The notes beneath the pieces were generated by a model that ran no database searches, had not been told where the DNA came from, and saw only the letters and a list, made by a program, of their open reading frames with translations. From the IMG/VR virus record IMGVR_UViG_2751185970_000003: a stretch of 17,229 bases of DNA. The stretch is one strand, 5' to 3'. Source of the stretch: a virus. Lineage: Duplodnaviria > Heunggongvirae > Uroviricota > Caudoviricetes. Shown one piece after another: positions 1 through 17,229 of this stretch. Position 1 is the stretch's first letter. Each line of letters starts with the position of its first letter. Position numbers and translations under genes: made by a program.

Positions 1-238
1 CATCAATGGTCTTTACAAAGCGGAGGTAATACACCGTAAGAGCTGGAAAAACCGTGCAGAAGTGGAACTGGCCACACTCACGTGGGTGGACTGGTATAAT
101 AATCGACGATTGCTGGAAAGGCTGGGCCACATCCCTCCGGCAGAAGCAGAAAAAGCTTATTATGCTTCCATCGGAAACGATGATCTGGCAGCCTGAGTTC
201 ACAGATAAAACACTCTCCAGGAAACCCGGGGCGGTTCA
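1..238 (+). mobile_element. IS629-like (IS3 family) insertion sequence, right-hand end; element continues upstream of the window
   Basis: The terminal 42 bp (197..238) read on the minus strand are TGAACCGCCCCGGGTTTCCTGGAGAGTGTTTTATCTGTGAAC, which matches the IS629/IS1203 inverted repeat as I remember it, with the TG...CA ends typical of IS3-family elements. The transposase reading frame stops at 194..196, immediately before this repeat. Confidence 0.75.
2..196 (+). CDS. IS3-family transposase OrfB, C-terminal fragment (5' end outside the window)
   Basis: Frame 2 translates to INGLYKAEVIHRKSWKNRAEVELATLTWVDWYNNRRLLERLGHIPPAEAEKAYYASIGNDDLAA followed by TGA at 194..196, a typical IS3-group integrase C-terminus. 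Confidence 0.8.
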   Translation: MNGLYKAEVIHRKSWKNRAEVELATLTWVDWYNNRRLLERLGHIPPAEAEKAYYASIGNDDLAA

Positions 239-773
239 CTCTATTGTTCTTGGTGATAATGACACCGGATTTAAACAGAATGGAGACGGTATTCTGGATG
301 TTTATGCTAATAGTCAGCGTGTATTCCGCTTTCAGAATGGAGTGGCTATTGCTTTTAAAAATATTCAGGCCGGGGATGGTAAAAAATTCACGCTATCCAG
401 CTCCAACAACTCCACAAAGAATGCAACGTTTAATTTATGGGGTGCTTCAACCCGTCCAGTAGTTGCAGAGTTAGGCAATGAGGCAGGATGGCATTTCTAT
501 AGCCAGCGAAATACAGATAACTCGGTAATATTTTCTGTTAACGGTCAGATACAGCCCAGCAACTGGGGGAATTTTGATTCACGCTATGTAAAAGATGTTC
601 GCCTGGGTACGCGTGTTGTTCAATTGATGGCGCGTGGTGGTCGTTATGAAAAAGCCGGACACGCAATTACCGGATTAAGAATCATTGGTGAAGTAGATGG
701 CGATGATGAAGCCATCTTCAGACCAATACAAAAATACATCAATGGCACATGGTATAACGTCGCACAGGTGTAA
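239..773 (+). pseudogene. Tail fibre C-terminal (variable, receptor-binding) fragment, P2 gpH type; 5'-truncated silent inversion cassette (Hv')
   Basis: The translation SIVLGDNDTGFKQNGDGILDVYANSQRVFRFQNGVAIAFKNIQAGDGKKF...[17 protein letters not shown] is nearly identical to the C-terminal ~175 aa of phage P2 gpH as I recall it. It has no start codon; its 5' end abuts the IS629 terminus at 238. The ORF-track entry 54..773 is a read-through across the IS end. Confidence 0.8.
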
Positions 774-776
774 ATT

Positions 777-1305
777 ATGCAGCATATTAAAAAATATTAA
801 GTCCGGAAATCCAAAAACAAAAGAACAATATCAGCTAACAAAGAATTTTGATGTTATCTGGTTATGGTCCGAAGACGGTAAAAACTGGTATGAGGAAGTA
901 AATAACTTTCAGGACGACACCATAAAGATTGTATACGACGAAAATAATATTATTGTTGCCATAACCAAAGATGCCCCAACGCTTAATCCCGAAGGCTTTA
1001 GTGTCGTTGAGATTCCAGATATAACAGCCAATCGTCGTGCCGATGATTCAGGGAAGTGGATGTTTAAGGACGGAACTGTGGTTAAGCGGATTTATACAGC
1101 AGACGAACAGCAACAACAGGCCGAATCACAAAAGGTCGCGTTGCTTTCTGAAGCTGAAAGCGTTATTCAGCCACTGGAACGCGCTGTCAGGCTGAATATG
1201 GCGATGGATGAGGAACGCACACGACTGGAGTCATGGGAACGCTACAGCGTTCTGGTCAGCCGTGTGGATACAGCAAATCCCGAATGGCCACAAAAGCCTG
1301 AGTAA
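777..1305 (+). pseudogene. Tail fibre assembly protein, P2 gpG type (G'), with a +1 frameshift after codon 3
   Basis: From about 787 onward the translation is [37 protein letters not shown]...[10 protein letters not shown], a P2 gpG-like tail fibre assembly protein. The ATG at 777 (atg cag cat) is in frame 0 but the body is in frame +1. An extra A at about 786 creates a stop (tat taa) after 7 codons in the ATG frame. Confidence 0.6.
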
Positions 1306-1310
1306 AAATT

Positions 1311-1330
1311 AAGGCCCAATATCGGGCCTT
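1311..1330. terminator. Bidirectional hairpin terminator between the convergent G' and G genes
   Basis: AAGGCCC-aatatc-GGGCCTT forms a 7-bp stem with a 6-nt loop. On the minus strand it is followed by a T-run (complement of 1305..1309), directly downstream of the minus-strand tfa stop at 1334. Confidence 0.55.
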
Positions 1331-1333
1331 CTC

Positions 1334-1867
1334 TCATTCTGGTTGTTCGGGAAACGTTACTGGCAGGCTGGAGGTGTCTGTAGATTCGACTTTCTGCGCA
1401 TAGAGCATCCACTCGGTTAATTTTTGTTTATTCTCGTCGGAAATGATGCCCAGTCGTAGCTGTGAGTCCCATAGCTGGGTTTTATCCCTGACAAGTTGCA
1501 ACAGGCTTTGCTTTTCATTTTCCGCTTGTTGCCTCTGCTCTTCCTCGGTATAAGTTCGCTTTATCACTACGCCATCTTTGAACAACCATTTCCCCGAAAT
1601 ATCAGCCCGGCGATTTGCTGTAATATCAGGTAATTCAACGACGCTTGCGCCTTCCGGATTAATTGCTGAAACATCCTTTTCAATACAAATAATAACGCCG
1701 TTATGGTAATAGACCATTTTCAAAGTGTCTGGCTGGAAATTCTTTTGTTCCTCATACCAGTTTTTTCCATCATCTGAATAAAGCCATTTGATGTTAAATT
1801 GCTTTGTTAGCTGGTATTGCTCTTTTGTTTTAGGGTTGCCAGCAGTAATGTTTTTTAAGTGCATCAT
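1334..1867 (-). CDS. G: Tail fibre assembly protein (expressed copy)
   Basis: 177 aa, [40 protein letters not shown]...; this is a tail fibre assembly/chaperone family protein. It starts 3 nt after the H stop and the region is AT-rich, as expected for a host-range module. Confidence 0.9.
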   Translation of the reverse strand: MMHLKNITAGNPKTKEQYQLTKQFNIKWLYSDDGKNWYEEQKNFQPDTLKMVYYHNGVIICIEKDVSAINPEGASVVELPDITANRRADISGKWLFKDGVVIKRTYTEEEQRQQAENEKQSLLQLVRDKTQLWDSQLRLGIISDENKQKLTEWMLYAQKVESTDTSSLPVTFPEQPE

Positions 1868-1869
1868 CG

Positions 1870-3855
1870 TTAAATACTCCCCGCGTTATACCACGTCCCA
1901 TTAATGCAATACTGAATTGGCCTTGCCTGTGTTGTATCAATTAATTCATCACGGTTTCCGTTAACTGAACCCGTAACGACATAACCTGACCTGTCAGACC
2001 AGCCGGGACCATTCCATGTCTGAACAGATGACAGACCGCCAAGGCGAATACCTGTAATAAACCTTGAGTTACATTCTGCCCGCGTATATGCACCAACATC
2101 TCCCGCTGAAGGTTTTCGTGTCGTGGTATAGAAATCTGACCAACCTAATTCAACCCCATAACCATCACGAGCCGACCTGTAGGAAATGCCACCATTTTTA
2201 TAATTCACACGGAATTGTACGGCAGGACAGCTACCAGCATTTATATTAAAGTGAAGAATTAATGCAGATGCACCACCAATCAGGGCGTTATATGCACCAC
2301 TATCCCAATTCCATCCAACGGATGTATCACCATTAACAGTATTACCTGTTTGTCGGAGTGCAAATGCATTGACATTTTTGGCACTAATTGAGATATCGCT
2401 AGAACCATCAAAACCAACTCCAGCAATTTTTCGTGCTGTTTTCAGCTTTGTTGCAGTAGCGGCATTGCCGGACAGTTCCCCAGAAAGGCCACCGCTGAAT
2501 GTTTGTCGATTGGTCCAGGTATTCGCTGTACTGAGTAACGGTATTTTCTCCCCGCTTGTGCCGAGTTCTCGTAAACCGAGGTATTCGATAACGGCAGCAA
2601 CGGTCGATTTCGCAAGAATATCCCGCCCGACTTTTGTCAGGGTTGCCAGGCTGGCGACATCATTCCCCGTAAAATACGGAAACCTGTCTGCCGCAGTAGC
2701 AAGCCCGGCCAGCGCCGTCAGGGTGGCATCTTTCGGTTGCTTACCCGCAAGCGCGTTAGTCATGGTGGTCGCAAAATTCGGGGCGTTTCCCAGCGCCGCC
2801 GCTAACTCGTTCAGCGTATTCAGTGCGTCAGGTGACGAATCTACAAGGGCGGCAATCGCAGCCATAACGAAAGCCGTGCTTGCGATTTGGGTATTATTCG
2901 TTCCCTGTCGCGCAGCTGGCGTTGTTGGCGTTCCGGTCAGCGCAGGACTGTTTAAGGGCGCTTTCTTGTTCGTTTCATCCATTACCGCCTTAACCGCTTT
3001 CGATGTCGCGGCCAGTGTTTCAGACGTGCTGTTGGTGGCACTACTGAGCTGGACTATCCCTTTTTGTGCCGTCGTGGCGTCCTGAGCGGTATATTTTGCG
3101 TTAGCAAGGTCATACGCGGCCTTTACTGCTTTCGGCGTTGCAGCCTGCGTTTCAGACGTGCTGTTGGTGGCGCTACTGAGCTGGACAAGGCCTTTTCGCG
3201 TCGTGCTGGCATCCTGCGCAGTATATTTACCGTTAGCAAGATCATACGCGGCCTTTACTGCTTTCGGTGTTGCAGCCTGCGTTTCAGACACGCTGTTAGT
3301 GGCGCTACTGAGTTGAACAAAGCCTTTTGCGGTCAGCGAGGCGTCCGGGTGACGTCGTGACTGTTCATGCTCTTTCAGTTTGTCATCCACGTAATCCACT
3401 GTGGCCATCACCATGGTGTTGTCCACGGTAAGCGCCACGGTGGCAGTGCTGGATACGGTCAGAATGGTGCGAAATGTTTGTGCACGACCGGACCCTTCGG
3501 CAACGGCTGGCTTGTAACTTTCGGCAGTATTTCCCACCGCGATTAAATCGCCGTGCTCATCAAATACACCAATTTCCCGGATCCAGAATCCGCCCGTTTC
3601 AGGAGGAATAACCAGCTCCGCAATAATGCGGTTCTGATGTGTTGCGTCCAGGATGACGCGATTAACAGTATGTCGCCACACCTCATGCACCAGACGGGTC
3701 TGCTTACTGTCTGGTGTGGGCAACGTGCCGCCACCGTCGCCCACGGCCATATGAGTCAGGCGGACAGGCTTACCATCTGGCGCGGCTACCTGAGCTAATT
3801 TTTTTGCACCCGTATCGGTGATAATGGTTTTAAATTTTCGTGTTGTGGTACTCAT
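1870..3855 (-). CDS. H: Tail fibre protein (P2 gpH homologue with a divergent C-terminal receptor-binding region)
   Basis: 661 aa. The N-terminal ~430 aa track P2 gpH (HEVWRH..., IAELVIPPE...GGFW, EHEQSRRHPDASLTAKGF, repeated QLSSATNSTSETLAATPKAVKA units, ...AVIEYLGL). The C-terminus after the crossover site is unrelated to the P2-type Hv' cassette at 239..773. Confidence 0.92.
   Translation of the reverse strand: MSTTTRKFKTIITDTGAKKLAQVAAPDGKPVRLTHMAVGDGGGTLPTPDSKQTRLVHEVWRHTVNRVILDATHQNRIIAELVIPPETGGFWIREIGVFDEHGDLIAVGNTAESYKPAVAEGSGRAQTFRTILTVSSTATVALTVDNTMVMATVDYVDDKLKEHEQSRRHPDASLTAKGFVQLSSATNSVSETQAATPKAVKAAYDLANGKYTAQDASTTRKGLVQLSSATNSTSETQAATPKAVKAAYDLANAKYTAQDATTAQKGIVQLSSATNSTSETLAATSKAVKAVMDETNKKAPLNSPALTGTPTTPAARQGTNNTQIASTAFVMAAIAALVDSSPDALNTLNELAAALGNAPNFATTMTNALAGKQPKDATLTALAGLATAADRFPYFTGNDVASLATLTKVGRDILAKSTVAAVIEYLGLRELGTSGEKIPLLSTANTWTNRQTFSGGLSGELSGNAATATKLKTARKIAGVGFDGSSDISISAKNVNAFALRQTGNTVNGDTSVGWNWDSGAYNALIGGASALILHFNINAGSCPAVQFRVNYKNGGISYRSARDGYGVELGWSDFYTTTRKPSAGDVGAYTRAECNSRFITGIRLGGLSSVQTWNGPGWSDRSGYVVTGSVNGNRDELIDTTQARPIQYCINGTWYNAGSI
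2566..2591. other. gix/hix/cix-like 26-bp crossover site for a Din-family serine DNA invertase, inside the tail fibre gene
   Basis: TTCTCGTAAACCGAGGTATTCGATAA matches about 21 of 26 positions of Mu gixL (TTCCTGTAAACCGAGGTTTTGGATAA, from memory). It sits at the constant/variable boundary of H, where the protein reads VIEYLGLRE. Confidence 0.6.
2988..3345. repeat. Tandem 132-bp (44-codon) repeats inside H, about 2.7 copies
   Basis: Units beginning at 3017, 3149 and 3281 are near-identical (gtttcagacgtgctgttggtgg...), with partial units at the flanks. They encode KGFVQLSSATNSxSETQAATPKAVKAAYDLANGKYTAQDAxTT repeated. Confidence 0.85.
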
Positions 3856-3857
3856 GC

Positions 3858-4388
3858 TTAATCGCCTGGATAAATGGTAATAACTTCACCGTCATAAGTT
3901 GCCGCCGCTGCGAAAATATCCCCCGGAATTTCCTGAATGATATTCAGCCCTGTCATGTGGCGGCTGACCGGGCGGGCATCAGCAATCAACCGCTCCATTT
4001 CCAGATACATTTCCTCCGTCACGCCACTGTCCAGCGTGCCGACTTCAACGGTAAATGTTCCCGGTTCTCCGCCGAACTCCCACCACTCAGACACGCGAAT
4101 GAGGTATCCCAGCGGCTCAATGGCCCGGCGCAGTGCGCTGATGGTCCCTTTGTGTCGGTGTATCAGCCATGCATCACGAATAACCTGTCGCTTTGTCTCT
4201 TCCGGCCAGTTGCGATCCCAGCGGTCAACGGAAAACGCCCAGGCGAGATAAGGCAGCAGATGCACCGGGCAGGTGTCCGGCGACCACAGCGTGTTGAGGT
4301 CTACCGGAATGTCTGTAATGCGTGTTCCGACGGCTTCGGCACAACGCATGAAATTGCTGGCTGATGGTGGTAACAACGAATTACTCAT
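3858..4388 (-). CDS. I: Baseplate assembly protein gpI
   Basis: 176 aa from the ATG at 4388 (MSNSLLPPSASNF...WAFSVDRWD...GEVITIYPGD), with a GAAGGTGG ribosome-binding site 5 nt upstream. The ORF-track start at 4421 is an upstream extension overlapping J. Confidence 0.88.
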   Translation of the reverse strand: MSNSLLPPSASNFMRCAEAVGTRITDIPVDLNTLWSPDTCPVHLLPYLAWAFSVDRWDRNWPEETKRQVIRDAWLIHRHKGTISALRRAIEPLGYLIRVSEWWEFGGEPGTFTVEVGTLDSGVTEEMYLEMERLIADARPVSRHMTGLNIIQEIPGDIFAAAATYDGEVITIYPGD

Positions 4389-5276
4389 TGCGTCCACCTT
4401 CGCTGATGGTGAATGACTCACAGCGCGCCGCCTGTATGTCGCTGATGGCCATATTCTGTGTGGGTTCGATTATCTCCACGCGTTGCACACCGTGCACATG
4501 CAGTGCGGCAGCAATGGCGGACAACGCCACGTCCTGACCGATAAGCCCCTGCTCAGCCAGCCACTTCCTGAACGACGATTCAGCCGCGGCCAGAATAGGT
4601 TCGGATTCCGGGCCGGGGTAAAAGTACAGTTTTGCATTCAGCCGCCATGTCACGATTCTGGCACTCTGTACGGTCAGGCGGTCGCCACCGGGCGGGTATC
4701 CTCTGCATTCAGAACGGCGCGAACGGTATTAAGCAACGCCTCCGTTGCTGTGCCGTCGCCCTCAGTGGACAGGATGGAAACCGTCACGTTGGCCGGAGAC
4801 GGGCTGATGGCCCGCGCATCGCGTACCAGACCGCTGGCGCTGCGTGCAAAATACTCGTATGCACCTGACGGGCCAGCAACACTCAGACCGTCATATGCCC
4901 GTTGCGCCCGTAGTCTCAGCGAGGTGTCACTTTCCATCACTGCATCGGTGGTATCCGTTGCCGGAGTGATAACCAGGCGCTTTGTGTTCATATTGCCCGC
5001 GAGGTTGTCCAGGTCTGTCCCGGCGCTGTGGCTTAGCATGCAGGCGCGTGCACCCTCATTGACCCGCTGGCGTAACAGCATTTCACGAAACGACATGGTT
5101 TGAGCGATAACGTTAAGGGGTTCCGATTCCAGCTCCAGCGCGGCGGAAACGGCTTCACGCTGTTCGGCGGGATAGGACGCAATCATCATGGCCTTTGTGT
5201 CAGCCAGAATTGCCTCAAAGTCAGGCTCCGCGATGATGGCGGGTTCCGGTAACTGTGAAAGGTCAACGGCAGGCAT
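4381..5276 (-). pseudogene. J: Baseplate assembly protein gpJ, split by a 1-bp deletion (frameshift near 4683)
   Basis: Two ORFs (4674..5276 and 4381..4653) together cover a P2 gpJ-like protein (MPAVDLSQLPEPAIIAE...TRPVA then, in another frame, GDRLTVQSARIVTWRLNAKLYFYPGPESEP...). The minus strand reads gtggcgaccgcctga where gtggcgGaccgcctg would restore the frame. Confidence 0.7.
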
Positions 5277-5279
5277 GAT

Positions 5280-5630
5280 TTACTCCCTCAGCGTGATGGT
5301 TAATTCAACATTCTGCATGGTCTGCATGACAGTGCCCGACAGCGTCACCCCGGCGCGGCCTCCTGCCTTCCAGACAACGTCGATAGCGTCCAGGGCAATG
5401 CGGGGTTCCCATCGTGTCAGCGCAATCACGGCAGCACTCATGCATTGCAGACGCGTGGTGTTATTCATGGGTTCGTCAATCAAATCAGGCACAAGGCTGC
5501 CATATTCCCGTCGCATAACCCGGCTTGCCAGCGGGGTGGTCAGGATGTCCCTGACTGACTGTTTCAGGTGCTCCATATCGTTCAGGTTTCCCGTTCCGTC
5601 CGGGTTCATTCCTGTGTAGCGGGTTGTCAC
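5280..5630 (-). CDS. W: Baseplate wedge protein gpW
   Basis: 116 aa, MTTRYTGMNPDG...SRVMRREYGSL...; the size and sequence pattern fit P2 gpW. It overlaps the V stop by 4 nt (ATGA). Confidence 0.88.
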   Translation of the reverse strand: MTTRYTGMNPDGTGNLNDMEHLKQSVRDILTTPLASRVMRREYGSLVPDLIDEPMNNTTRLQCMSAAVIALTRWEPRIALDAIDVVWKAGGRAGVTLSGTVMQTMQNVELTITLRE

Positions 5631-6208
5631 TGCGGGCCTCCTGTCGAATCGCTGCCACCTTTAACGCCACCGTGTTTATGCGTATGCACTGTGATGCCGT
5701 TTGAGGTGAAATTGCCGCCGCTGTGCGTGATATTGCCGCTCATCTTTCCCCCTTTTGTGACGTCAAGCGTCGCCGTTCTCAGAAGGTCTGTGCATTCCAC
5801 GACGGGCGTATCCAGTGTCACGCTGACGGATGCCTGCAGGGTGGCTGTTTTCATGCCGCTGGCGCTCAGTGCGCCTGCGTCCGCGTCGTAGCGGAACACC
5901 GCGCCATCCGGCGCGCTGACCACGATTTCTTTCAGGCTTTTGCCGGGGGCCGGAATGGCATCACTCCACAGGCTGCCAATTATCATGGCGGTTTCCGGGT
6001 TGCCGCCAATGCAGGCAATTACCACCTGTTCGCCTGGTGATGGCGGCAGCCACACATTGAAGGCTCCCGCGCGAGAGGTGTTCCAGCGCAGCCAACCTGT
6101 TTCCAGTTCGCCGCTGCGAACGCGCACGCGCCAGGACTTCTCATCAACTTCAGAGATGATCCCGGTGCGGATGATATTGCTCAGTAGCCGCATGAGTTCT
6201 GCGCTCAC
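5627..6208 (-). CDS. V: Baseplate spike protein gpV
   Basis: 193 aa, with the NIIRTGII, GEQVVI and C-terminal SNGITVHTHKHGG motifs characteristic of the P2 gpV spike. Confidence 0.9.
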   Translation of the reverse strand: MSAELMRLLSNIIRTGIISEVDEKSWRVRVRSGELETGWLRWNTSRAGAFNVWLPPSPGEQVVIACIGGNPETAMIIGSLWSDAIPAPGKSLKEIVVSAPDGAVFRYDADAGALSASGMKTATLQASVSVTLDTPVVECTDLLRTATLDVTKGGKMSGNITHSGGNFTSNGITVHTHKHGGVKGGSDSTGGPQ

Positions 6209-6840
6209 CGTACAGCCTCCGCAATCCGGCCCAGCACCGTGTTATAAATCAGACGCTCATCTGCCTGGCTGATACCCAGCAGCTCACGTACCGGGTAATC
6301 GGTGAAAATGCCCGGCGCAACCTGATCGCGCTCACCGAACTGATGAACGCGTGCAATACGTGCGGCCACGCCGCTGTAACCCACCGTCACACCGGAAGCA
6401 TCTGCACGGGCTTTCAGGTAGCGGGCGGTGCGCAGTTTTACGAACATGGGGACGCGCTTTGTGCTGTCCTGGTTGATGCGCCGGGTGCGTATTTCCAGAA
6501 AGCGGTCGATGTCATCCCGGTAAAACGTGCGGATGCTGTTTTTATCCTCATCCCACCCGGTGATGGTTCGCCCGTATTTCCCCGTGTCGTGATGCCAGTT
6601 TTTCAGCGTGCGTGCTTCGTTATTCCAGATAAAGCGAATGCGCTCCTGTATCCGGGTTACGTGGCGTCTGCGTGGTGTCCATGCGGTCCCGTCCGGCGCT
6701 TTCTGTGGCCGGATACGTGCCTGCTGGGCGCGGCGTAAATCCTGTGCCAGCTTTCTGGCGATGTTATTGATGGCCTGCTGATTCAGGCTGTCGCGGATGG
6801 CCTCAAAGGTTTCATCCACGCGAGTGAATGCCTTATCCAT
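6205..6840 (-). CDS. S: Tail completion / virion morphogenesis protein gpS
   Basis: 211 aa from the ATG at 6840, which has a GGGGTGA ribosome-binding site; the ORF track starts at a GTG at 6849. The PDGTAWTPRRR, FVKLRTARYLK and ARIARVHQFG motifs fit the P2 gpS family, and the gene lies between R and V. Confidence 0.8.
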   Translation of the reverse strand: MDKAFTRVDETFEAIRDSLNQQAINNIARKLAQDLRRAQQARIRPQKAPDGTAWTPRRRHVTRIQERIRFIWNNEARTLKNWHHDTGKYGRTITGWDEDKNSIRTFYRDDIDRFLEIRTRRINQDSTKRVPMFVKLRTARYLKARADASGVTVGYSGVAARIARVHQFGERDQVAPGIFTDYPVRELLGISQADERLIYNTVLGRIAEAVR

Positions 6841-7300
6841 CGCTTTCACCCCACGTCACATCCTGGAATACATGCGACCAGTCGCCTTCGGAAGATGGCA
6901 GGCGGGGTTTTGGCTCCAGCAGGTGTTCTGCCTGCGGTGTGCCCTGACTGCTGCGCGTGATGCGAACGCGTTCCCGCAGGGGGAGCGTAAACAGGAGATC
7001 GGCGCTGTCATCGTCATTGATAACGGCGGAAAATTTGATGTCCTGATTACGCTCAGGGTTGAGCAACAACTGTGGCTGATTTTCGGATAACCACGCCAGC
7101 AGCGGCAGCGTGAGGTCGTCCAGCTCCCCGGCGTAATCCATGACAAACATCACCATCTGATAGCGGTAAACAAACGATGGGGTTTCTCCGGTCGTTTCAA
7201 TGTTGCCGCTCTCCACGAAAATGGTGAATTTTTCCGGGTTAGCCTGACACCATCGGCATGAACGGGTCATGGCTTCACGCAGGGAATCAGTTTTCAGCAT
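6833..7300 (-). CDS. R: Tail completion protein gpR
   Basis: 155 aa, MLKTDSLREAMTRS...LLAWLSENQP...; same length as P2 gpR with clear N-terminal similarity. Confidence 0.88.
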   Translation of the reverse strand: MLKTDSLREAMTRSCRWCQANPEKFTIFVESGNIETTGETPSFVYRYQMVMFVMDYAGELDDLTLPLLAWLSENQPQLLLNPERNQDIKFSAVINDDDSADLLFTLPLRERVRITRSSQGTPQAEHLLEPKPRLPSSEGDWSHVFQDVTWGESDG

Positions 7301-7577
7301 GGTTGTTATCCTCGTTGTTCAGTCGTTGCAGCCTGCGCTGTTCCAGTAATTCAATGGCCCGTTTATCCGCGTTACAGGTTTCCAGTGCATCCAGAAGGCG
7401 GTCGCCCCATATACCGAGATTTCCCCATGTGGGAGTGTCAGGGAAGGGGGGAGGCGTTACCGGTATGGTCAGCGTCTGCGGTATAAGCCGGACTGACGGC
7501 GCTGGCAGTGGCGCGTTCTGCGTGCCTGCGCAGCCTGTCAGTAAAACGAGCGTCAGGCAAAGCGTGGGCGCATTCAT
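7287..7577 (-). CDS. lysC: Outer-membrane spanin lipoprotein (Rz1-like, LysC)
   Basis: 96 aa from the ATG at 7577: MNAPTLCLTLVLLTGCAG has a lipobox, followed by a proline-rich stretch (PLPAPSVRLIPQTLTIPVTPPPFPDTP). It begins inside the 3' part of lysB in another frame and extends beyond it. The ORF-track start at 7607 is a GTG. Confidence 0.8.
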   Translation of the reverse strand: MNAPTLCLTLVLLTGCAGTQNAPLPAPSVRLIPQTLTIPVTPPPFPDTPTWGNLGIWGDRLLDALETCNADKRAIELLEQRRLQRLNNEDNNHAEN

Positions 7578-7845
7578 CTTTTGCAATATCGTTGCGTAGC
7601 TGTTCACGTCTTACCTCTCCGTCCTGATTGCGTTGCTGATTTTCCACGCGGAGTTGCGCCAGCACCTGCTGCATATCCTGTACCCCGGCGCTGATGATAT
7701 TCAGGGTGTCGGCGGTACTTTTCAGGGTGCTGGCCTGCGCTTCGTTTCTGGCGTTCTCCCGGCCCAGCGACCACGACAGACGCATGGATGTTCCCCATCC
7801 GGCAGTCAGAAGGAAAGCGACGCCAAGCGTGGGCCAGAGCTTCAT
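7438..7845 (-). CDS. lysB: Inner-membrane spanin (Rz-like, LysB)
   Basis: 135 aa from the ATG at 7845 (MKLWPTLGVAFLLTAGW...), with an N-terminal transmembrane segment followed by a charged coiled-coil. It overlaps the endolysin stop by 4 nt (ATGA). Confidence 0.8.
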   Translation of the reverse strand: MKLWPTLGVAFLLTAGWGTSMRLSWSLGRENARNEAQASTLKSTADTLNIISAGVQDMQQVLAQLRVENQQRNQDGEVRREQLRNDIAKDECAHALPDARFTDRLRRHAERATASAVSPAYTADADHTGNASPLP

Positions 7846-8234
7846 GCCGGATAGGCTCCGTGTGGTAACTGAAAATGCGGTCCGTCTTTCAGGGTCTTCC
7901 AGTCGCCGCCCCATTCCACCGGAATATTCAGTTCCCGGCTGGCCTGTCTGAATGCTGCTGCGATTTTTTCGTACAGCGGCCATTCCCATGACATCTGGCT
8001 GCCGATATAAGCCACAACATCCACGGCATGCCCCGTAAGGTGGCGGCTGTTCATGGTCTGGCTCTTACCCGTGGCCACCAGTTGCTTCTGGCGGTAACGG
8101 CTGCGCAACCCTTCGGTGATACCAAAATCCACTTCCGAGATTTCCAGTGCCCGTCGGGTCACTTTCACCAGATCAGGATTTACACCCTGCAAATTCTTTT
8201 CGCTCCGGCTGCTGAATTTAAATGTGTTGCTCAT
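7842..8234 (-). CDS. Endolysin, peptidase M15 / L-alanyl-D-glutamate peptidase type
   Basis: 130 aa with the zinc-peptidase signature SRHLTGHAVDV and a downstream DGPHFQ, placed between holin and spanins. This is not the lysozyme-type P2 gpK. Confidence 0.75.
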   Translation of the reverse strand: MSNTFKFSSRSEKNLQGVNPDLVKVTRRALEISEVDFGITEGLRSRYRQKQLVATGKSQTMNSRHLTGHAVDVVAYIGSQMSWEWPLYEKIAAAFRQASRELNIPVEWGGDWKTLKDGPHFQLPHGAYPA

Positions 8235-8554
8235 TCGTCCTTCTCCTTCACCCTGCGATTAAAGGCCGCAATAACCTTGTCGCGTGCTTTCTCTGCACCC
8301 ATAAAACCGATTGATGCGCCGATAAACGTCACGGCATCTTCAGGAAACCCGAAGAAGCGCAACGACCCGGCCACGGCCATGGCAAGAACGCCGCACGCCA
8401 GCGATCCCGTTACGGTCTGAACCAGTGTTCGTCCGTCATAAAGGCTCATCAGCGCGGAAATGCTGACCGCCGCGCCTACTGCATACACCGTTGGCAGGTG
8501 GTCAAAGAGCCACGCAATAACCTGCTCTGTGATCCCTGTTTGAATGGTGCTCAC
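8231..8554 (-). CDS. Holin (three predicted transmembrane segments, charged C-terminus)
   Basis: About 107 aa from the GTG at 8554, with a GGGGGAG ribosome-binding site 6 nt upstream. Hydrophobic segments TVYAVGAAVSISALMSL, VTGSLACGVLAMAVAGSL and AVTFIGASIGFMGA are followed by a KR-rich tail. It sits immediately upstream of the endolysin with an ATGA overlap. Confidence 0.7.
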   Translation of the reverse strand: MSTIQTGITEQVIAWLFDHLPTVYAVGAAVSISALMSLYDGRTLVQTVTGSLACGVLAMAVAGSLRFFGFPEDAVTFIGASIGFMGAEKARDKVIAAFNRRVKEKDE

Positions 8555-8556
8555 TG

Positions 8557-8757
8557 CTACTCCCCCCACAACTGAATCATTTCTCGTTTCTTCTTCTCCG
8601 GCTCCGGCATCTCCACTTCCTGCCCGGCGTCCAGAAATACCTGCTGACAGAGTCCGGGGTTGGCATCCAGCACCTTTTCGGTGACGCCCTGCGTCGTGCC
8701 GTAGTACCGGAAACAGAGCGAATCCACGGTGTCGCCTTCCAGTGCCTTCACTTTCAT
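8557..8757 (-). CDS. X: Tail protein gpX
   Basis: 66 aa from the ATG at 8757 (MKVKALEGDTVDSLCFRYYGTTQGVTEKVLDANPGL...LWGE), resembling P2 gpX (MKTFALQGDTLDAICVRYYG...). It overlaps the L stop by 1 nt (TGATG). Confidence 0.88.
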   Translation of the reverse strand: MKVKALEGDTVDSLCFRYYGTTQGVTEKVLDANPGLCQQVFLDAGQEVEMPEPEKKKREMIQLWGE

Positions 8758-9251
8758 CAGCACAACTCCGCAAAGATTCGCGGGCGGCACAGAATGTCAG
8801 AGATGGCCCAGCTCACATCACGCCACAAATCCGATGTCTGTATATCCAGAGCGTCTGCCCGGCGGTCGCCCTTGTCCGTAGTGTCTGCATCACGATAACG
8901 CTCCAGAATCAGGGCGCGCGTGGCGGTATAAACAGCATTGCGCCAGTGCCAGAGATTGACGCTTTCTCCGTTAATTACGGGTGCCGGAACATCGGCCAGC
9001 GTCTGATGGCCAGCTGCCTGCTGTTCCTGCTGCCATGCTTCCAGCTCGCGGGTAACGTGTGCCACAGCCCCGGTGGCAGTATGCAGCAGGCGGGAGGTGG
9101 TCACGCGCCCCGGCAGTCGTACCGCCAGACGCAGCTCGCGCAGCACAATATCCGGCCAGAATGCACCCGCTGAAATGCGGGTATCGCCATCATCGGTATC
9201 GGTGATGTCGTCCTCTGCGGGTCCGGGTTCAGTTCTGGCAACTATAGTCAT
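8757..9251 (-). CDS. L: Head completion / stabilisation protein gpL
   Basis: 164 aa from the ATG at 9251, with an AGGAG ribosome-binding site 9 nt upstream. Its position between M and X and its size fit P2 gpL. Confidence 0.8.
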   Translation of the reverse strand: MTIVARTEPGPAEDDITDTDDGDTRISAGAFWPDIVLRELRLAVRLPGRVTTSRLLHTATGAVAHVTRELEAWQQEQQAAGHQTLADVPAPVINGESVNLWHWRNAVYTATRALILERYRDADTTDKGDRRADALDIQTSDLWRDVSWAISDILCRPRIFAELC

Positions 9252-9354
9252 GGGGTTCACTCCTGAAAAAAAATCGGGCGGTGGGTGCGCGGTGTAAACG
9301 GTCACGGAGTCAAACTGGAACACCGCGCACGCCGCCCGCTGACGGGGTCAGTCG

Positions 9355-10155
9355 TTAACCGCGCTTCGCCTTCTGCGTCGCGGTGGTTTTTCGTGTTGCA
9401 GGCTTCCGCGTTGTCTTTTTACTTTTGCTGCTTTCGTCCTGCGCCTGCTGTGCGCTGGCGTCTTCTGGTTCGGCTGCGGAATCGGCTTTTTTCAGGGCGC
9501 GGGAAAGGGTTGCAATCTCGCGTTTCACACCTGCGTTCGGGTTCAGGTGCATTGCTTCGCGCAGCAGCTTCAGTGACAGGGCCATGCTGTCCGCATCACT
9601 CAGGCCACGGCGGGCAAAGGCGCACGCTTTGCATAATTTGGCGCGCACTTCGTCCGGCATGTCCTGGTCGGTGACAATCTCCCGGAGGGTGTCCAGTGGT
9701 TCGATAAAGGCGGACAAATCCGCGTCGGCATCCGTCCCGGCCTGCGTCAGTACCGGATTACAGATTTCTTCGGTCAGTACCGTGGCAGCAGTACGGCCAA
9801 AGTTATCCGGCATGATGAGGTTGTGACGGACTACATACGCGCCGATACGCAGCGCAAGCGGAAGATCGCCACAGTCAATCGCCCACACCATCAGCGTGGC
9901 AATCACTTCATCCTGCTGCCCGCCGTCAGCCTCCAGCGTTCCCTCAATCCAGCCGGAAAAATCCGGCAACAACTCTTTTTTGATGGCGGCTTTCGCGCTT
10001 CTGGCCTGTACGCCCTTAAGCCGGGCCTGTGCCAGACGCAGACGATACAGCACCTCTTCATGCGCGGTACGCGCGGCGTGGTCCACGCCTTCATTCGCCC
10101 GGCCTGCGCGCTGTGCCATCACGTTCTGCCAGTGTTGTTGTGCAGGAGTAATCAT
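9355..10155 (-). CDS. M: Terminase endonuclease (small) subunit gpM
   Basis: 266 aa, with a GGAGAG ribosome-binding site upstream of the ATG at 10155. Its position after the capsid gene and its basic C-terminal tail (KKTTRKPATRKTTATQKAKRG) fit P2 gpM. Confidence 0.85.
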   Translation of the reverse strand: MITPAQQHWQNVMAQRAGRANEGVDHAARTAHEEVLYRLRLAQARLKGVQARSAKAAIKKELLPDFSGWIEGTLEADGGQQDEVIATLMVWAIDCGDLPLALRIGAYVVRHNLIMPDNFGRTAATVLTEEICNPVLTQAGTDADADLSAFIEPLDTLREIVTDQDMPDEVRAKLCKACAFARRGLSDADSMALSLKLLREAMHLNPNAGVKREIATLSRALKKADSAAEPEDASAQQAQDESSKSKKTTRKPATRKTTATQKAKRG

Positions 10156-10172
10156 TTTTGCTCTCCGTTACA

Positions 10173-10191
10173 GGCGGGCATGATGCCCGCC
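10173..10191 (-). other. Perfect 19-bp palindrome / stem-loop between capsid gene N and terminase gene M
   Basis: GGCGGGCAT-g-ATGCCCGCC has 9-bp arms. It lies between the N stop (10201) and the M ribosome-binding site and is a candidate attenuator, RNA processing or stability element. Confidence 0.5.
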
Positions 10192-10200
10192 GTGAGTTGA

Positions 10201-11252
10201 TTAGCTGTCGGCGAACTTCAGGCCAGTAACCATCGCGCACTTGCCATAGTCTTCAACGACATAAGCGTCATTGATGGACTGGTAGGTGGCGATGCGGTTG
10301 TATTCCGGCTCGTCTTTCATCAGGCGACGCATTGAACCTTTCTGCCAGTAAATCGACAGGTTGTTGAACGAGGTGATCAGCATCGTTGCATCCGGGAAGA
10401 ACGGCGCAAGGAACACGCCCAGCCCGCCAATGGTGCGCGATGACAGGATGAGCTGCCCGGCGAGTAATTCCGCATTGGGATTCTGGCCGCTGATGCTGTT
10501 CAGCACGGGCAGACGCAGCGAGTTAAACAGGTTGCGCCCCATAATCACCACGAGGTCGTCAGCTTCCTTGTGCCATTCATCCAGCAGGGATGAACGCGCG
10601 TCCTGTACCAGTGCATCAGCGTTCGCATACTTACCCGCGTGCGCCACGGTGTTGTCCATGTTGCGGGAGGTCAGCGTCACGTCATTCATAACGCGTTCGC
10701 TGGCGTCGGTTCTGATGTGCTCCAGCCAGCCCACGTTAACGTCCTGAAGCAGCTTGTTGGTGCTGAAGTTGGACTCATCCGCGTGAGACGTGCCGTTGAA
10801 ACCGATCATGATGCGGTCAAGCGCCACCTGTCGGGCAATCTGTGCGCTGATGCGGGACTGAAAATCAGGGTGTGCCGACCAGGCATCAAGCTGCGGATAC
10901 GAAATAAACGTGTCGTAGTTCACCTGTTCACACTGATATTTGCGGTTTTTCAGATCAACCACGTTATTCGGGTTACGGCGTTTTGTGCCGTCATAACTGG
11001 TATTCGTGCGCGCAATCGGTCCTGTGGTATCCAGGAGGATTTTTTCGCCTTTCTGGTCGGTCACGCCGATCACGTTATTTTTTTCGTAAATTCGGTACTT
11101 TCCTTTGAGGCGTTTTCAAAACGCTGCTGCACCGCGGGTTCCACGGTAAATCGCGACACCAGTGCAGATACCGGGATATTATTAAGCGACACCTGCTGCG
11201 CCATATAGCAACCCAGCTTGTTGCGGGTAATATCTGACATCACCAGATTCAT
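10201..11252 (-). pseudogene. N: Major capsid protein gpN, interrupted by a 1-bp frameshift in a homopolymer (T7 at 11078..11084)
   Basis: The ATG at 11252 has an AAGGAG ribosome-binding site 9 nt upstream. The first 60 codons (...FTVEPAVQQRFENASKESTEFTKK) end at a stop at 11070; the rest (...NVIGVTDQKGEKILLDTTG...NLSIYWQKG...YVVEDYGKCAMV) is in the -1 frame. One extra T/A in the run would give a continuous ~350-aa P2 gpN-like protein. Confidence 0.75.
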
Positions 11253-11275
11253 AAAAAATTTGCTCCTTTGTCTAA

Positions 11276-12112
11276 TCAGAAGTCGGCCAGCTGGTCGGAG
11301 GCTGCGCCCGTTGCGGTGAAGCGGTTCTGCGGATCGCCGTCCTGCGTGCGCAGTTTTTCCTTCAGTGCTGCCAGCTCTGTGGTCAGTGACGTAATTTTCT
11401 GGCGGTCCTGCTGATGGCGGGTTTCCAGCACATTAAAACGGTCGATAATGTCGGCCTGTGACGTTGCGACGCCTTCCACCGCTTCCTGAATACGGGAAAA
11501 ACTGGCGTCATCCGCTTTGCGGCCACGGCCAATAATCCCCATTACGCGGTTAAACCACTGGGTGCCTTCTTCCTGGCGTTGTTCTGCCATTTCGATGATT
11601 TCAGACTCGATGGCTTCGGAGATAAGCGGCGCTTCACCCTGGATACTGTTAAACGTCATCACCGCCTGACGTTGCTGTGCCGTGAATTTCAGGCGCTCAG
11701 TGCCCAGGCTTGCCGGGGTGTCGGTCATCGCCAGCCCGACCAGATAGGCGCGCCCGTTAACGGAGAACTGCGGGTGCAGTTCGATACTGGAATAGATTTT
11801 CTTGCCGTCCGCAACAAGCTGCTTCATGCGCTCGGTCGGTTCGATTTCTGCATACAGCGCAGTACGTCCGGCCAGCGGACCTTCCGTAATCTCTTCCGTA
11901 CTCAGTGCGGTGACATCGCCCATTGCGGAAAATTCGCTTGACGGGCATGGCGAGAGATAGTGCTCAACGTTCACGCGGGCAGCGTAAACATCCGGGTTGA
12001 AGTTCTCGGCGGCTTCACGCAGATGCACCGGACTGATTTCACGGCCATCAACAGTTGATCCGGAGACAGCCACGCGAAACTTTTTGCGGGATGTCTTTTT
12101 TTCATTAGCCAT
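11276..12112 (-). CDS. O: Capsid scaffolding protein gpO
   Basis: 278 aa from the ATG at 12112 (MANEKKTSRKKFRVAVSGSTVDGREISPVHL...YLVGLAMTDTPASLGTE...), resembling P2 gpO (FRIGVEGDTCDGRVIS..., CYLVGLAVTDDPASLGTE). The ORF-track start at 12145 is an upstream extension. Confidence 0.88.
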   Translation of the reverse strand: MANEKKTSRKKFRVAVSGSTVDGREISPVHLREAAENFNPDVYAARVNVEHYLSPCPSSEFSAMGDVTALSTEEITEGPLAGRTALYAEIEPTERMKQLVADGKKIYSSIELHPQFSVNGRAYLVGLAMTDTPASLGTERLKFTAQQRQAVMTFNSIQGEAPLISEAIESEIIEMAEQRQEEGTQWFNRVMGIIGRGRKADDASFSRIQEAVEGVATSQADIIDRFNVLETRHQQDRQKITSLTTELAALKEKLRTQDGDPQNRFTATGAASDQLADF

Positions 12113-12266
12113 AGTTTTTGCCCCTCTGACTGGTTCTTCAGTCATGATGGCAAAGCGTAACAGGCTGATACAAAGGGCTTTTGTTGTAAGAAAACGGCCA
12201 GAACAGAGGGTTAAGGAGAACAGTTTCGCGCGCGGGTAATCTTCCTGTAATTACTCAGGGGGAGCA
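12113..12266. promoter_or_regulatory. Divergent O / P intergenic region; expected site of the late promoters for the O-operon (minus) and P-Q operon (plus)
   Basis: A 154-bp non-coding gap between divergently transcribed O and P, with ribosome-binding sites at both ends. This is the same arrangement as in P2. I could not find a clean TGT-N12-ACA activator box. Confidence 0.4.
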
Positions 12267-14018
12267 ATGATTCAGGACGCTTTTGTGCGCCAGCGTGCGC
12301 GGCAACTTTACTGGCAGGGTTATCCGCCCGCAGAAATATCACGTCTGATGGGAATAAACCCGAACACGATTTATGCGTGGAAAAAACGTGACCAGTGGGA
12401 TGAAACGCCACCCGGGCAGCGTGTCACGCAGTCCATCGATGCGCGCCTCATCCAGCTTACTGAAAAACAGAATAAAACAGGCGGTGACTTTAAGGAAATA
12501 GACCTGCTGACCCGGCAGCTTAAAAAGCTGCATGATGGCCAGCCGGATGTGATGGCCGCAGGAAAGAAAGGCCGGGCGAAAAAACTCAAAAATCATTTCA
12601 CGCCGGAACAGATTGCCGCACTGCGGGAAAAAATCATCAGCAGGCTGGAGTGGCATCAGCGGGGCTGGTTTGACTCCCTGACCCTTTGCAGGGAAGCCGG
12701 GATACGTAACAGGATGATCCTGAAATCCCGACAGATTGGGGCGACCTGGTATTTTGCACAGGAAGCACTGCTGATGGCGCTGCGTGACGATGTGGCGCAA
12801 CCTTACCAGCGTAACCAGATTTTTTTGTCTGCGTCGCGTCGTCAGGCGTTCCAGTTTAAAAGCATTATTCAGAAGGCCGCGGCTGAAGTTGATGTGGAGC
12901 TGAAAGGGGGCGATAAAATCATCCTCTCCAACGGCGCAGAGCTGCATTTTCTCGGCACTTCTGCTGCGTCGGCACAGTCCTATACGGGCAATTTTTATTT
13001 TGATGAATTTTTCTGGGTCAGTCGCTTTGCTGAACTGCGCAAGGTGGCTGGCGCTATGGCAACCCTCAGCGGACTGCGGCGCACCTACTTCTCCACGCCA
13101 TCCACCGAAACGCACGAGGCATACGCCTACTGGAACGGCGACCGCTGGAACGAGAAAAAGGCCTCGCATAAACGCCAGCGTTTTTCTGTGGACTGGAAAA
13201 CGCTGCATAACGGGCTTATCTGCCCTGACCGGACGTGGCGGCAAATTGTCACGCTGGAAGATGTGGTTAATCACGGCTGGAAACACACCGATATCGACGA
13301 AATTCGTGATGAAAACACCGAAGACGAGTTCCTCAATCTCTATATGTGTGAGTTTGTCCGCGAAGGGGAATCGGCATTTAACCTGAATATCCTGATTGGC
13401 TGCGGCGTTGACGGATACGACGACTGGAAAGACTGGAAACCTTTTGCTCCCCGCCCGATGGGGAATCGTCCGGTATGGATTGGGTATGACGCAAACGGCA
13501 GCAGTGGCAACGGCGACAGCGGCGCTGTGTCCGTGGTGGTTCCTCCGTCTGTTCCTGGTGGCCGTTTTCGAACGGTGGAGACGCGACGCGTTCAGGGGCT
13601 GGAGTTTGAAGAACAGGCCAGAGTCATTGAAGAGTTCACGTGTCGCTACAACGTGGAACACATCGGCATTGATGTGACGGGCGGGAACGGGGAGGCTGTT
13701 TATCAGATAGTGAAACGGTTTTTCCCTGCCGCTATTCCGTACACCTTCACGCTGTCATCAAAACGGTCGCTGGTACTGAAAATGCTGCAAATAATGCGTG
13801 CCGGGCGGTGGGAATACGATCGCGCCGAACGCGAGCTGGTCGCGGCCTTTAACGCCGTGCGTAAGGTGAAAACACCGGGCGGCTTTATCACTTACGAAAC
13901 GGACCGAGCGAGGGGGATCAGCCACGGCGACCTTGCGTGGGCAACCATGCTTGCTGTCATTAACGAACCGATTGGCGGCGAAGGAGAAAACGAGCGTTTC
14001 ACGGTTATGGAGTTCTGA
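12267..14018 (+). CDS. P: Terminase large subunit (ATPase) gpP
   Basis: 583 aa, with a GGGGGAG ribosome-binding site. The N-terminal MIQDAFVRQRARQLYWQGY...ISRLMGINPNTIYAWKKRDQW region and the overall size match P2 gpP. It overlaps the Q start by 1 nt (TGATG). Confidence 0.93.
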   Translation: MIQDAFVRQRARQLYWQGYPPAEISRLMGINPNTIYAWKKRDQWDETPPGQRVTQSIDARLIQLTEKQNKTGGDFKEIDLLTRQLKKLHDGQPDVMAAGKKGRAKKLKNHFTPEQIAALREKIISRLEWHQRGWFDSLTLCREAGIRNRMILKSRQIGATWYFAQEALLMALRDDVAQPYQRNQIFLSASRRQAFQFKSIIQKAAAEVDVELKGGDKIILSNGAELHFLGTSAASAQSYTGNFYFDEFFWVSRFAELRKVAGAMATLSGLRRTYFSTPSTETHEAYAYWNGDRWNEKKASHKRQRFSVDWKTLHNGLICPDRTWRQIVTLEDVVNHGWKHTDIDEIRDENTEDEFLNLYMCEFVREGESAFNLNILIGCGVDGYDDWKDWKPFAPRPMGNRPVWIGYDANGSSGNGDSGAVSVVVPPSVPGGRFRTVETRRVQGLEFEEQARVIEEFTCRYNVEHIGIDVTGGNGEAVYQIVKRFFPAAIPYTFTLSSKRSLVLKMLQIMRAGRWEYDRAERELVAAFNAVRKVKTPGGFITYETDRARGISHGDLAWATMLAVINEPIGGEGENERFTVMEF

Positions 14019-15064
14019 TGAGCAGAAAAAATAAAAAAGTGCGCATGAGTTCACGCATTGATCTCGCTGATGCGCTCAGGAAAGAATCATCGCTCAGTGC
14101 ATTCACATTTGATGGTCCTTATCGCCTGACCGGGCATGACCTGCTGGACAATATGTACTGTGCTGATAACGGGCGGTGGTATGAAACCCCGGTGGACTGG
14201 TACGGTCTGGCAAGAGCTGCCCGGCAAACGTCCTGGCATCAGTCTGCGCTTTATTTTAAGCGCAATGTATTGCTCGGTTGCTACATCCCGCACCCGCTGC
14301 TTTCCCGGCAGGATTTCTCGGCGCTGGCGCTGGACTGGTTTGTGTTCGGTAACGCATTCCTTGAGCTTCGAAGCAATATGCTCGGCGAACCGCTTAAATT
14401 ACGGCACGCCCTGGCGAAATACATGCGACGCGGAAGCGATCTTGAATCATGGAGGTATGTGCAGGATGGCAAGGATGCGTTTCAGTTTCGCCCAGGCAAA
14501 GTGTGTCACCTGATGAATCCTGACATTAACCAGGAAATCTACGGCATGCCGGAATATCTCGGCGCATTACTCTCGGCCAGCCTGTCTCATTCGGCGGACA
14601 TGTTCAGAAAACTGTATTACGACAACGGATCCCACGCCGGGTGCATCATCTACATCGGTGCCGCGCAGGTAAACCGCGAAAGCATGGACTCCCTGAAAGA
14701 AACGCTACAGGGTGCGCGTGGTGGTGGTGCGTTTAAAAACGTGCTCATTCATGCGCCCAACGGGGGCAAAGAGGGGGTGCAAATTTTGCCGTTCCAGCAG
14801 ATCACCGCAAAGGATGAGTTCATGAATGTTAAGGCGGCATCCCGTGATGATGTGCTGGCTGCGCACCGCGTTCCGCCGCAACTGATGGGGGCGATGCCGG
14901 GTGAAAAAAGTGCGTTTGGTGATGTGGAGAAGGCCGCGCGGGTTTACGCAATTAACGAGCTGATGCCCGTCATGGAGGCCATGAAGCACATCAATGACTG
15001 GCTTGGCGAAGAGGTGATCCGCTTTAACCCTTACGCACTGTTAGACATCCAGCCCACATCCTGA
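14018..15064 (+). CDS. Q: Portal (capsid vertex) protein gpQ
   Basis: 348 aa, MSRKNKKVRMSSRIDLADALRKES...; the size and position downstream of P fit P2 gpQ. Confidence 0.92.
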   Translation: MSRKNKKVRMSSRIDLADALRKESSLSAFTFDGPYRLTGHDLLDNMYCADNGRWYETPVDWYGLARAARQTSWHQSALYFKRNVLLGCYIPHPLLSRQDFSALALDWFVFGNAFLELRSNMLGEPLKLRHALAKYMRRGSDLESWRYVQDGKDAFQFRPGKVCHLMNPDINQEIYGMPEYLGALLSASLSHSADMFRKLYYDNGSHAGCIIYIGAAQVNRESMDSLKETLQGARGGGAFKNVLIHAPNGGKEGVQILPFQQITAKDEFMNVKAASRDDVLAAHRVPPQLMGAMPGEKSAFGDVEKAARVYAINELMPVMEAMKHINDWLGEEVIRFNPYALLDIQPTS

Positions 15065-15091
15065 CGCGCTTCGCTTGTCTGCTGCTTCGCC

Positions 15092-15114
15092 GGGGCATAA
15101 AAAATTTATGCCCC
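15092..15114 (+). terminator. Hairpin immediately downstream of Q
   Basis: GGGGCATAAA-aaa-TTTATGCCCC has a 10-bp stem and begins 28 nt after the Q stop. There is no strong U-tract, so it may act as an RNA stability element or weak terminator. Confidence 0.45.
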
Positions 15115-15283
15115 GACTCTCCAGCTCCTGTATCAGTCAGATAATTTCACGACGCCTTCCAGTTTATCGCCACCATCGACGGTCAGACTCTTACGCAATC
15201 CCACCGCGTTGACTGCATGTTCTCGCCGCCTCAGTGCGATTTTGACGGCCTTACCTTTCACCCCATCAAATCAGAATCCCTCA

Positions 15284-15314
15284 CGTATTTTTCACGCTCA
15301 GCGTGAGAAATACG
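15284..15314. other. 31-bp near-perfect palindrome in the cos-proximal non-coding region
   Basis: CGTATTTTTCACGCT-c-AGCGTGAGAAATACG has 15-bp arms with a single mismatch; it is a candidate protein-binding or packaging element. Confidence 0.6.
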
Positions 15315-15393
15315 GCCATTCTGTCGTGTCGCTGCGACATCGTTAAGGGAACGCTATTTACCCCCTGAAACGCGGGCTGTTCCCCCGTCACCT

Positions 15394-15418
15394 GCGCGCA
15401 GAAAAAGCGCGTTTTTTT
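15394..15418 (+). terminator. Rho-independent terminator (plus strand)
   Basis: GCGCGC-agaaaaa-GCGCG followed by TTTTTTT at 15412..15418. Confidence 0.6.
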
Positions 15419-15488
15419 GTGCACGCACGGATCCTTGACGGATCCAGCCGCCACGCGGGCTGGAAGGGCAAAAATTCGTTCAAAAAAA

Positions 15489-15515
15489 TTGTGCAAATTT
15501 GTGCACTATTGTGCA
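15489..15515. repeat. Three direct TTGTGCA repeats with exact 10-bp phasing
   Basis: aTTGTGCAaa tTTGTGCAct aTTGTGCAgc at 15489, 15499 and 15509, preceded by an A-tract. The one-helical-turn spacing suggests an array of protein-binding sites. Confidence 0.6.
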
Positions 15516-15517
15516 GC

Positions 15518-15541
15518 AGGGCGATGTGCGATTATCGCCCT
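15518..15541 (-). terminator. Stem-loop 14 nt downstream of the Ea22-like gene stop (possible terminator)
   Basis: AGGGCGAT-gtgcgatt-ATCGCCCT has an 8-bp stem. No immediate U-tract follows on the minus strand. Confidence 0.3.
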
Positions 15542-15554
15542 GGTTTGAGGGGGA

Positions 15555-16145: not shown

Positions 16146-16208
16146 TAAGTCGTTCTCCTTGTTTATGTTCTGAGGTGGAGAGCAGGGCGAACTCGCCCTG
16201 ATGTTGTG

Positions 16209-16520: not shown

Positions 16521-16524
16521 TGGT

Positions 16525-17130: not shown

Positions 17131-17229
17131 TGAAGTGGTCAACAAAAACTGGCCACCGAGTTAGAGTTTTTCCAGTATCGATTTTCCGATTCGTTTGGGG
17201 GGAACCCACCGTTATATTCGTGCGGTCTT
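17131..17229. mobile_element. Terminus of an IS3-family-like insertion sequence (IS911-like end), continuing beyond the window
   Basis: The sequence begins TGAAGTGGTCAACAAAAACTGGCCACC, which resembles the IS911-type terminal repeat (TGAAGTGG...TGGCCACC) as I recall it, exactly where ParM homology stops. No ORF is included in the 99 bp available. Confidence 0.5.

Follow-up and report, generated by a model that had tools for sequence, protein, structure and literature searches.

One-base loss in the baseplate gene J of an already defective P88-like prophage remnant

The baseplate gene J of the prophage analysed here is split into two open reading frames (ORFs) by the loss of a single C. We lean towards reading this split as a genuine but inconsequential mutation, which turned J into a pseudogene late, in a remnant that was already non-viable. 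In either case, mutation or error, the J lesion has no biological effect, since the prophage lacks a working capsid gene and IS elements have truncated it.

Results

The deletion that splits J

We analysed a stretch of 17,229 nucleotides of viral DNA, here called the window. J occupies the minus strand from 5276 to 4381, where a one-base loss divides it into a 200-aa ORF (5276..4674) and a 90-aa ORF (4653..4381). In the six-frame ORF list the second ORF lies in the -1 frame relative to the first. The reading frame of J runs ...GAT ACC CGC CCG GTG GCG ACC GCC TGA, with the stop at 4676..4674 (the minus-strand letters at 4690-4674 are CGG TGG CGA CCG CCT GA). The translation of the 200-aa ORF ends in ...EDTRPVATA*, and that of the 90-aa ORF starts with MTWRLNAKLYFYPGPESEP....

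DNA alignments with five relatives, including E. coli ETEC4088, E. coli WAT, phage P88 and the near-identical sister L014, contain exactly one gap across the 896 nucleotides of J. At the junction the relatives read GGTGGCCGACCGC and the window reads GGTGGCGACCGC (aligned window string GGTGG-CGACCGC). The initial annotation had proposed a single-base deletion at this place, and the alignments bear it out. It had taken the lost base to be a G. The relatives show instead that a C is missing: all of them carry GTGGCCGAC, which has become GTGGCGAC in the window. The missing base is one C of the GCC codon of Ala198, between window positions 4685 and 4683 (deletion site 4683..4685, minus strand), so that a single C stands at 4684 where all relatives have CC. 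Since GCG and GCC both encode alanine, the restored protein is the same for either base. The restored frame and the peptide ...EDTRPVADRLTVQSARIVTWRLNAKLYFYPGPESEP..., as originally predicted, match the sister protein exactly.

The 5' part of the J pseudogene (4674..5276, minus strand) consists of 198 native codons and two out-of-frame codons (Thr-Ala), followed by the TGA. But for the deletion it is identical to J of the sister L014 (GCA_026486345.1). The 3' part (4381..4728, minus strand) lies in the -1 frame and is open from 4728, with the GTG at 4653 as its start in the ORF list. In the alignments to J and P2 gpJ, native residues 199-298 resume directly after the deletion. A chance pattern is ruled out because the two ORFs jointly account for a 298-aa protein from end to end, and this protein occurs with its exact sequence on at least 1000 contigs. 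The split is thus confirmed in the sequence and is due to the loss of one base.

Relatives of J

Judged by its sequence, the window belongs to a Xuanwuvirus (P88-like) prophage. A megablast search with the 896-nt stretch returned 13 phage records, all of them P88-like Xuanwuvirus with 95-97% identity, and 1017 E. coli records, with a subject span of 897 bases in every match listed. Over the whole gene, J of P88 (Xuanwuvirus, Peduoviridae) and the prophage copies in E. coli and Shigella share 96-99.8% DNA identity. The window itself is 96% identical to P88 over J and 98.1% identical over 5.7 kb with the same gene order, and the order V-W-J-I-H-G is common to the window and P88-type prophages. 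In P88 and in about 1000 copies from E. coli prophages, J is in frame and encodes 298 aa, whereas J of the window is one C short and yields 200 + 90 aa.

Phage P2 had been used as the model for J in the initial annotation. This choice holds in part. P2 gpJ is 54% identical end to end and collinear across the junction, it shares the junction motif EDxRPVADRxTVQSA and the same place in the V operon, and aligning both halves to it confirms the junction. However, P2 belongs to a different genus (Peduovirus), J of the window is a pseudogene, and the nearest phage is P88, with 96% DNA identity.

The relatives keep J in frame, and the arrangement in two ORFs is not conserved among them. In complete E. 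coli records the junction is intact (100% identical) in 118 and deleted in one. The deleted junction, with CC reduced to C, occupies 1 of 1087 places in complete E. coli genomes. IMG/VR holds at least 120 intact junctions and no deleted one. The deleted junction has no match in species-representative genomes either, which is uninformative as that collection holds one genome per species. An exact look-up in a collection of 15 billion proteins found the intact 298-aa sister J on at least 1000 contigs of E. coli or Enterobacteriaceae. The truncated J of 200 aa was found on a single contig, from a different prophage. The only match to the deleted junction in JGI metagenomes was rejected: it is a chance 24-mer from an unrelated high-GC organism that has no similarity to the window.

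The product of J

J lies between the gpW/gp25-like gene and the gpI gene in a contractile-tail baseplate operon. The genes V (5627-6208), W (5280-5630) and I (3858-4388) are all on the minus strand, in the order known from P2 and P88; H and G are also on the minus strand. The N-terminal ORF matches the Pfam family PF04865 (Baseplate_J) with 38.9 bits (cut-off 21.1; E = 7.9e-10), and this match stops at profile position 195 of 255. The repaired or sister J reaches 69.8 bits and matches positions 112-255 of the 255 in the profile. No Pfam-A family matches the 90-aa ORF by itself. Hence no uninterrupted ORF covers the whole Baseplate_J domain including its C-terminal part. J of the window appears to be a pseudogene of the Baseplate_J/gp47 family (P2 gpJ, Mu gp47, T4 gp6-like wedge proteins), not a working member of it.

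A close homologue of J is PA0618 (Tri1; PDB 6u5b, 6u5k, 5ces) from the baseplate of the Pseudomonas R-type pyocin. Two copies of PA0618 and one of the gpI-like PA0619 make up a wedge module, and PA0618 is the functional analogue of T4 gp6. The (PA0618)2-PA0619 module is the counterpart of the (gp6)2-gp7 wedge module of T4, and dimerisation of gp6-like subunits between wedges fastens the wedges into the baseplate ring (PMC10457771). Intact J aligns to PA0618 (PDB 6u5b) over residues 4-297 with E = 7e-75, and the C-terminal domain of PA0618, which was crystallised separately (PDB 5ces), aligns to J residues 205-297. In T4, the dimer between gp6 subunits is made by their C-terminal part. The truncated product of J is predicted to lack exactly the equivalent of the 5ces domain (residues ~205-298), and we infer that truncated J is non-functional. 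Unlike J, PA0618 belongs to a tailocin and not to a phage.

Sister loci

Sisters of the prophage were found by an exact look-up of the 661-aa tail-fibre protein of the window. Many assemblies carry the same prophage, and ten of these loci were examined. The lineage is a prophage found in Shigella flexneri serotype 6, the serotype of CP026811.1 (strain 64-5500) and CP055124.1 (FDAARGOS_714) (PMC9455713). All ten sister loci listed have an intact 298-aa J with GGTGGCCGACCG, and in all ten the capsid gene N is split (60 + 290 aa). L014, the nearest among the sisters listed, matches window positions 239-13854 (13,617 bp) and departs from them at two places, the gap in J at 4684, which is the only indel, and a synonymous SNP at 1454. 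Both are private to the window among the sister loci listed. Because the SNP at 1454 is synonymous, the exact-protein look-up cannot trace closer sisters by it.

Mutation or consensus error

It is quite possible, if somewhat improbable, that the deletion is a consensus error: the strain would have an intact J, and one C of CC would have been dropped in the record. Against the ten sister loci and some 640-690 contigs of the lineage, the deletion stands alone as a singleton. A private indel should be a less frequent event than a private SNP, and the 13.6 kb compared contain just one such SNP. In addition, E. coli 2011C-3911 (L004 13444-17015) contains an identical 76-mer with the same loss of C, in an indel-rich stretch at the end of a record. 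Over the final ~3.8 kb of that record indels are numerous, and the annotation marks J ('frameshifted', a RefSeq pseudogene), I and the following tail-fibre pieces all as frameshifted. This cluster probably reflects poor consensus or an unpolished contig end. Since the same loss occurs in such an error-like record end, the GC-rich J site can be miscalled. The locus of 2011C-3911 was rejected as being the window itself, as the two are only 95.9% identical with 35 gap positions. It has the same gene and the same loss in a prophage that is only ~96% identical, and the occurrence there is independent.

Several observations speak against an error. The record is otherwise clean: one indel in 13,617 bp against L014 means that it is not riddled with indel errors, which favours a real mutation. 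A pair of C residues is no long homopolymer. J is under no selection, and a real frameshift in it would be unremarkable. Furthermore, the private SNP at 1454 and the private IS3-family insertion at 238/239 show that the source has undergone some real divergence. The gap in J is read directly from the alignments; that the base is also missing in the cell is what we infer from these observations, against which stands the absence of the deletion from all ten sister loci listed.

For the annotation of the record, J should either be marked as a pseudogene or have the base re-checked.

The capsid gene N broke first

The gene N for the major capsid protein is a pseudogene too (10201..11252, minus strand). 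A T has been lost at 11077 after a run of seven A (11084..11078): the window reads ACG AAA AAA ATA ACG TGA, where relatives read ACG AAA A(G/A)A ATT AAC GTG. N is left as a 60-aa ORF (11252..11070) and a 290-aa ORF (11073..10201), which overlap at GTGA, and tblastn also finds it in two frames. The exact look-up in the collection of 15 billion proteins found the 290-aa fragment on 690 contigs named Shigella and the 60-aa fragment on 636 contigs named Shigella or S. flexneri. The frameshift in N is thus real and ancestral in this lineage; the deletion in J is derived and a singleton. N must have broken before J because N is frameshifted in every sister that still holds an intact J.

Decay also continues among the sisters, through further lesions of independent origin. 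In L012, L013, L015-L019 and L021, M (small terminase) is cut short to 248 aa by 10 inserted bp at the place that corresponds to window 9434, an insertion that neither the window nor L014 has. FII, the tail tube gene (18544-19051 in L014 and L021), is spread over three reading frames and interrupted by a stop in both sisters that were checked. The lesions in M and FII show that neutral decay is under way, and a frameshift in J is what one would expect of it. Shigella-type genomes are known for the expansion of IS elements and the accumulation of pseudogenes.

The state of the prophage

The prophage remnant, P88-like and thus P2-like, extends from 239 to 17130 on the minus strand. Its genes were assigned by tblastn of each gene against L005 (GCA_900163925.1), a relative whose prophage is otherwise intact, and from the annotation of relatives. 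The remnant comprises Q, P, O, N, M, L, X, the lysis genes (holin, lysin), R, S, V, W, J, I, H and G, of which N and J are frameshifted. All of these are on the minus strand except P and Q, which are on the plus strand. Apart from J and N, the structural genes in the window are full length by the comparison with L005. The same comparison found no sheath, tube, tape-measure, U or D genes adjoining the remnant in the window.

Both ends of the prophage are cut by repeated elements. Positions 1..238 are the end of an IS3-family element, which terminates in ...GGTTCA at 238 and cuts the prophage inside the alternative tail-fibre segment. This stretch occurs at 25,453 places in 4,130 E. coli genomes and is annotated as IS3 family transposase. 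The IS at 238/239 is absent from all ten sister loci listed, most of which continue into the invertase, U, T, E, FII and FI. At the other end, the match to the prophage relatives stops at 17130, and a repeated IS-like element (17131..17229) cuts the prophage inside parM; the query from this end is found at 7,787 places across 3,565 genomes.

An inducible prophage has its head, tail, lysis and replication genes all intact, and the window does not hold such a set. The prophage is a defective, IS-bounded remnant. It was non-viable before the J lesion because the ancestral N frameshift is present in sisters that keep an intact J.

The initial annotation had considered that the J frameshift, if real, would stop the production of infectious particles, and a version of this idea is that the deletion killed an otherwise functional prophage. 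Proteins of the J family are core components of the baseplate wedge, and the other structural genes in the window, N excepted, are full length. Yet the frameshift in N is common to the window and to every sister with an intact J, so N came first; IS-type repeats cut both ends, with no sheath, tube, tape-measure, U or D genes adjoining; and FII is broken in the sisters checked (L014, L021). It is therefore very improbable that the J deletion was the killing lesion. A single frameshift in an essential gene should not be taken as the cause of prophage death before neighbouring genes and sister genomes have been checked. In this prophage the older lesion, and the one that tells more, is the frameshift in N, which is fixed across hundreds of Shigella assemblies. 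We would class the prophage as a defective, IS-bounded remnant that was inactivated before the lesion in J arose.

If the J split is a late and neutral mutation, as we prefer to read it, one C of the Ala198 codon GCC would have been lost in the source strain's copy of the P88-like remnant. Translation would then pass into the +1 register, add Thr-Ala and stop. The resulting product of 200 aa would be without its C-terminal domain (residues ~205-298). By homology with PA0618/Tri1 and T4 gp6, the role of J would lie in a (gp6-like)2-gp7-like wedge module and in fastening the baseplate ring. The loss would be later than the N frameshift fixed in the S. flexneri serotype 6 lineage, the broken tail-tube gene of the sisters and the IS truncations. 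J would have been drifting neutrally, and its lesion would add no phenotype. A frameshifted Baseplate_J/gpJ pseudogene in a defective P88-like prophage is an already known kind, and nothing in the window departs from it.

Other one-base losses in J

Besides 2011C-3911, two assemblies have lost one base within the same GC-rich 12 bp of J. GCA_900163925.1 (L005 10001-10896) has the same loss of one C from CC in an otherwise intact prophage, which is 97.7% identical to the window overall. Its local haplotype resembles that of the window, but we rejected a deletion shared by descent, as the flanking SNPs differ 260 bp upstream and 100 bp downstream. An independent origin is more parsimonious because of these flanking SNPs and because the window is, apart from its two differences, identical to L014, in which J is intact. 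In GCA_019980425.1 (L007 9378-10273) one base is lost 12 bp upstream (CCC to CC), which turns ACCCGCCC into ACCGCCC and has the same 200 + 90 outcome. This deletion is an event independent of that in the window, and its type is found in none of the complete E. coli genomes. As an example of a natural frameshift in J elsewhere, it favours a real mutation in the window.

The CC to C loss occurs in three unrelated prophage backgrounds, and the CCC to CC loss 12 bp away in a fourth. Evidently, the J site can be hit, or miscalled, more than once. One could take the 21-nt GC-rich ACCCGCCCGGTGGCCGACCGCC for a recurrent hotspot of one-base deletions that would cut J right where its ring-forming C-terminal domain begins and would offer a repeated route to disarming P88-like prophages or to a J in two pieces that still assembles. 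We give this idea very little credence. A strong hotspot is rejected by the complete E. coli genomes, in which the CC to C loss holds 1 of 1087 places and the L007 type none.

Least credible of all is a functional split, in which -1 ribosomal frameshifting yields the full-length J or both pieces work as polypeptides of their own: the break at residue 198 does fall seven residues before the start of the PA0618 C-terminal domain (about 205), and the same or a neighbouring 1-nt deletion occurs in three other assemblies, but J contains no X XXY YYZ heptamer anywhere, the frames overlap by only 55 nt, no Shine-Dalgarno sequence precedes the GTG at 4653, the two-frame arrangement is unconserved (118 versus 1 in E. 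coli, at least 120 versus 0 in IMG/VR, at least 1000 versus 1 contigs) and the prophage has no working capsid gene. J thus shows neither the slippery heptamer nor the conserved two-frame arrangement of a programmed -1 frameshift such as P2 E/E'.

Further observations on the prophage

In N, the context A AAA AAA followed by ATA, near the stop, would in principle allow -1 slippage in the P site. The predicted slippage product would read ...KKNNV... instead of ...KKINV.... ATA is a rare codon in E. coli.

The closest E. coli relative, in ETEC4088, carries a 1-nt deletion of its own, in the gene for a DUF2570 (LysB-like) protein (L001 3433-3837, equivalent to window ~7451), which is annotated as a pseudogene. 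Unlike in ETEC4088, this gene is intact in the window.

The element at 17131 starts with TGAAGTGGTCAACAAAAACTGGCC... and looks like an IS3-family inverted repeat.

At the other end, window positions 239-2595 hold a segment with the C-terminal part of the tail fibre and the assembly gene, which is inverted relative to the prophage of ETEC4088. A 25-bp overlap at 2571-2595 is probably the crossover site. The segment is an invertible host-range segment of the Cin/Gin type, and the Shigella sisters have it in the orientation of the window. Its invertase gene (Resolvase/HTH_7, L014 14024-14623) is found on the far side of the IS, outside the window. Finally, the tail-fibre gene H (2987-3331) contains an internal tandem-like repeat, in which 2987-3200 aligns to 3119-3331 with about 84-87% identity; the repeat corresponds to the motif ...KGxVQLSSATNSxSETxAATPKAVKAAYDLA....
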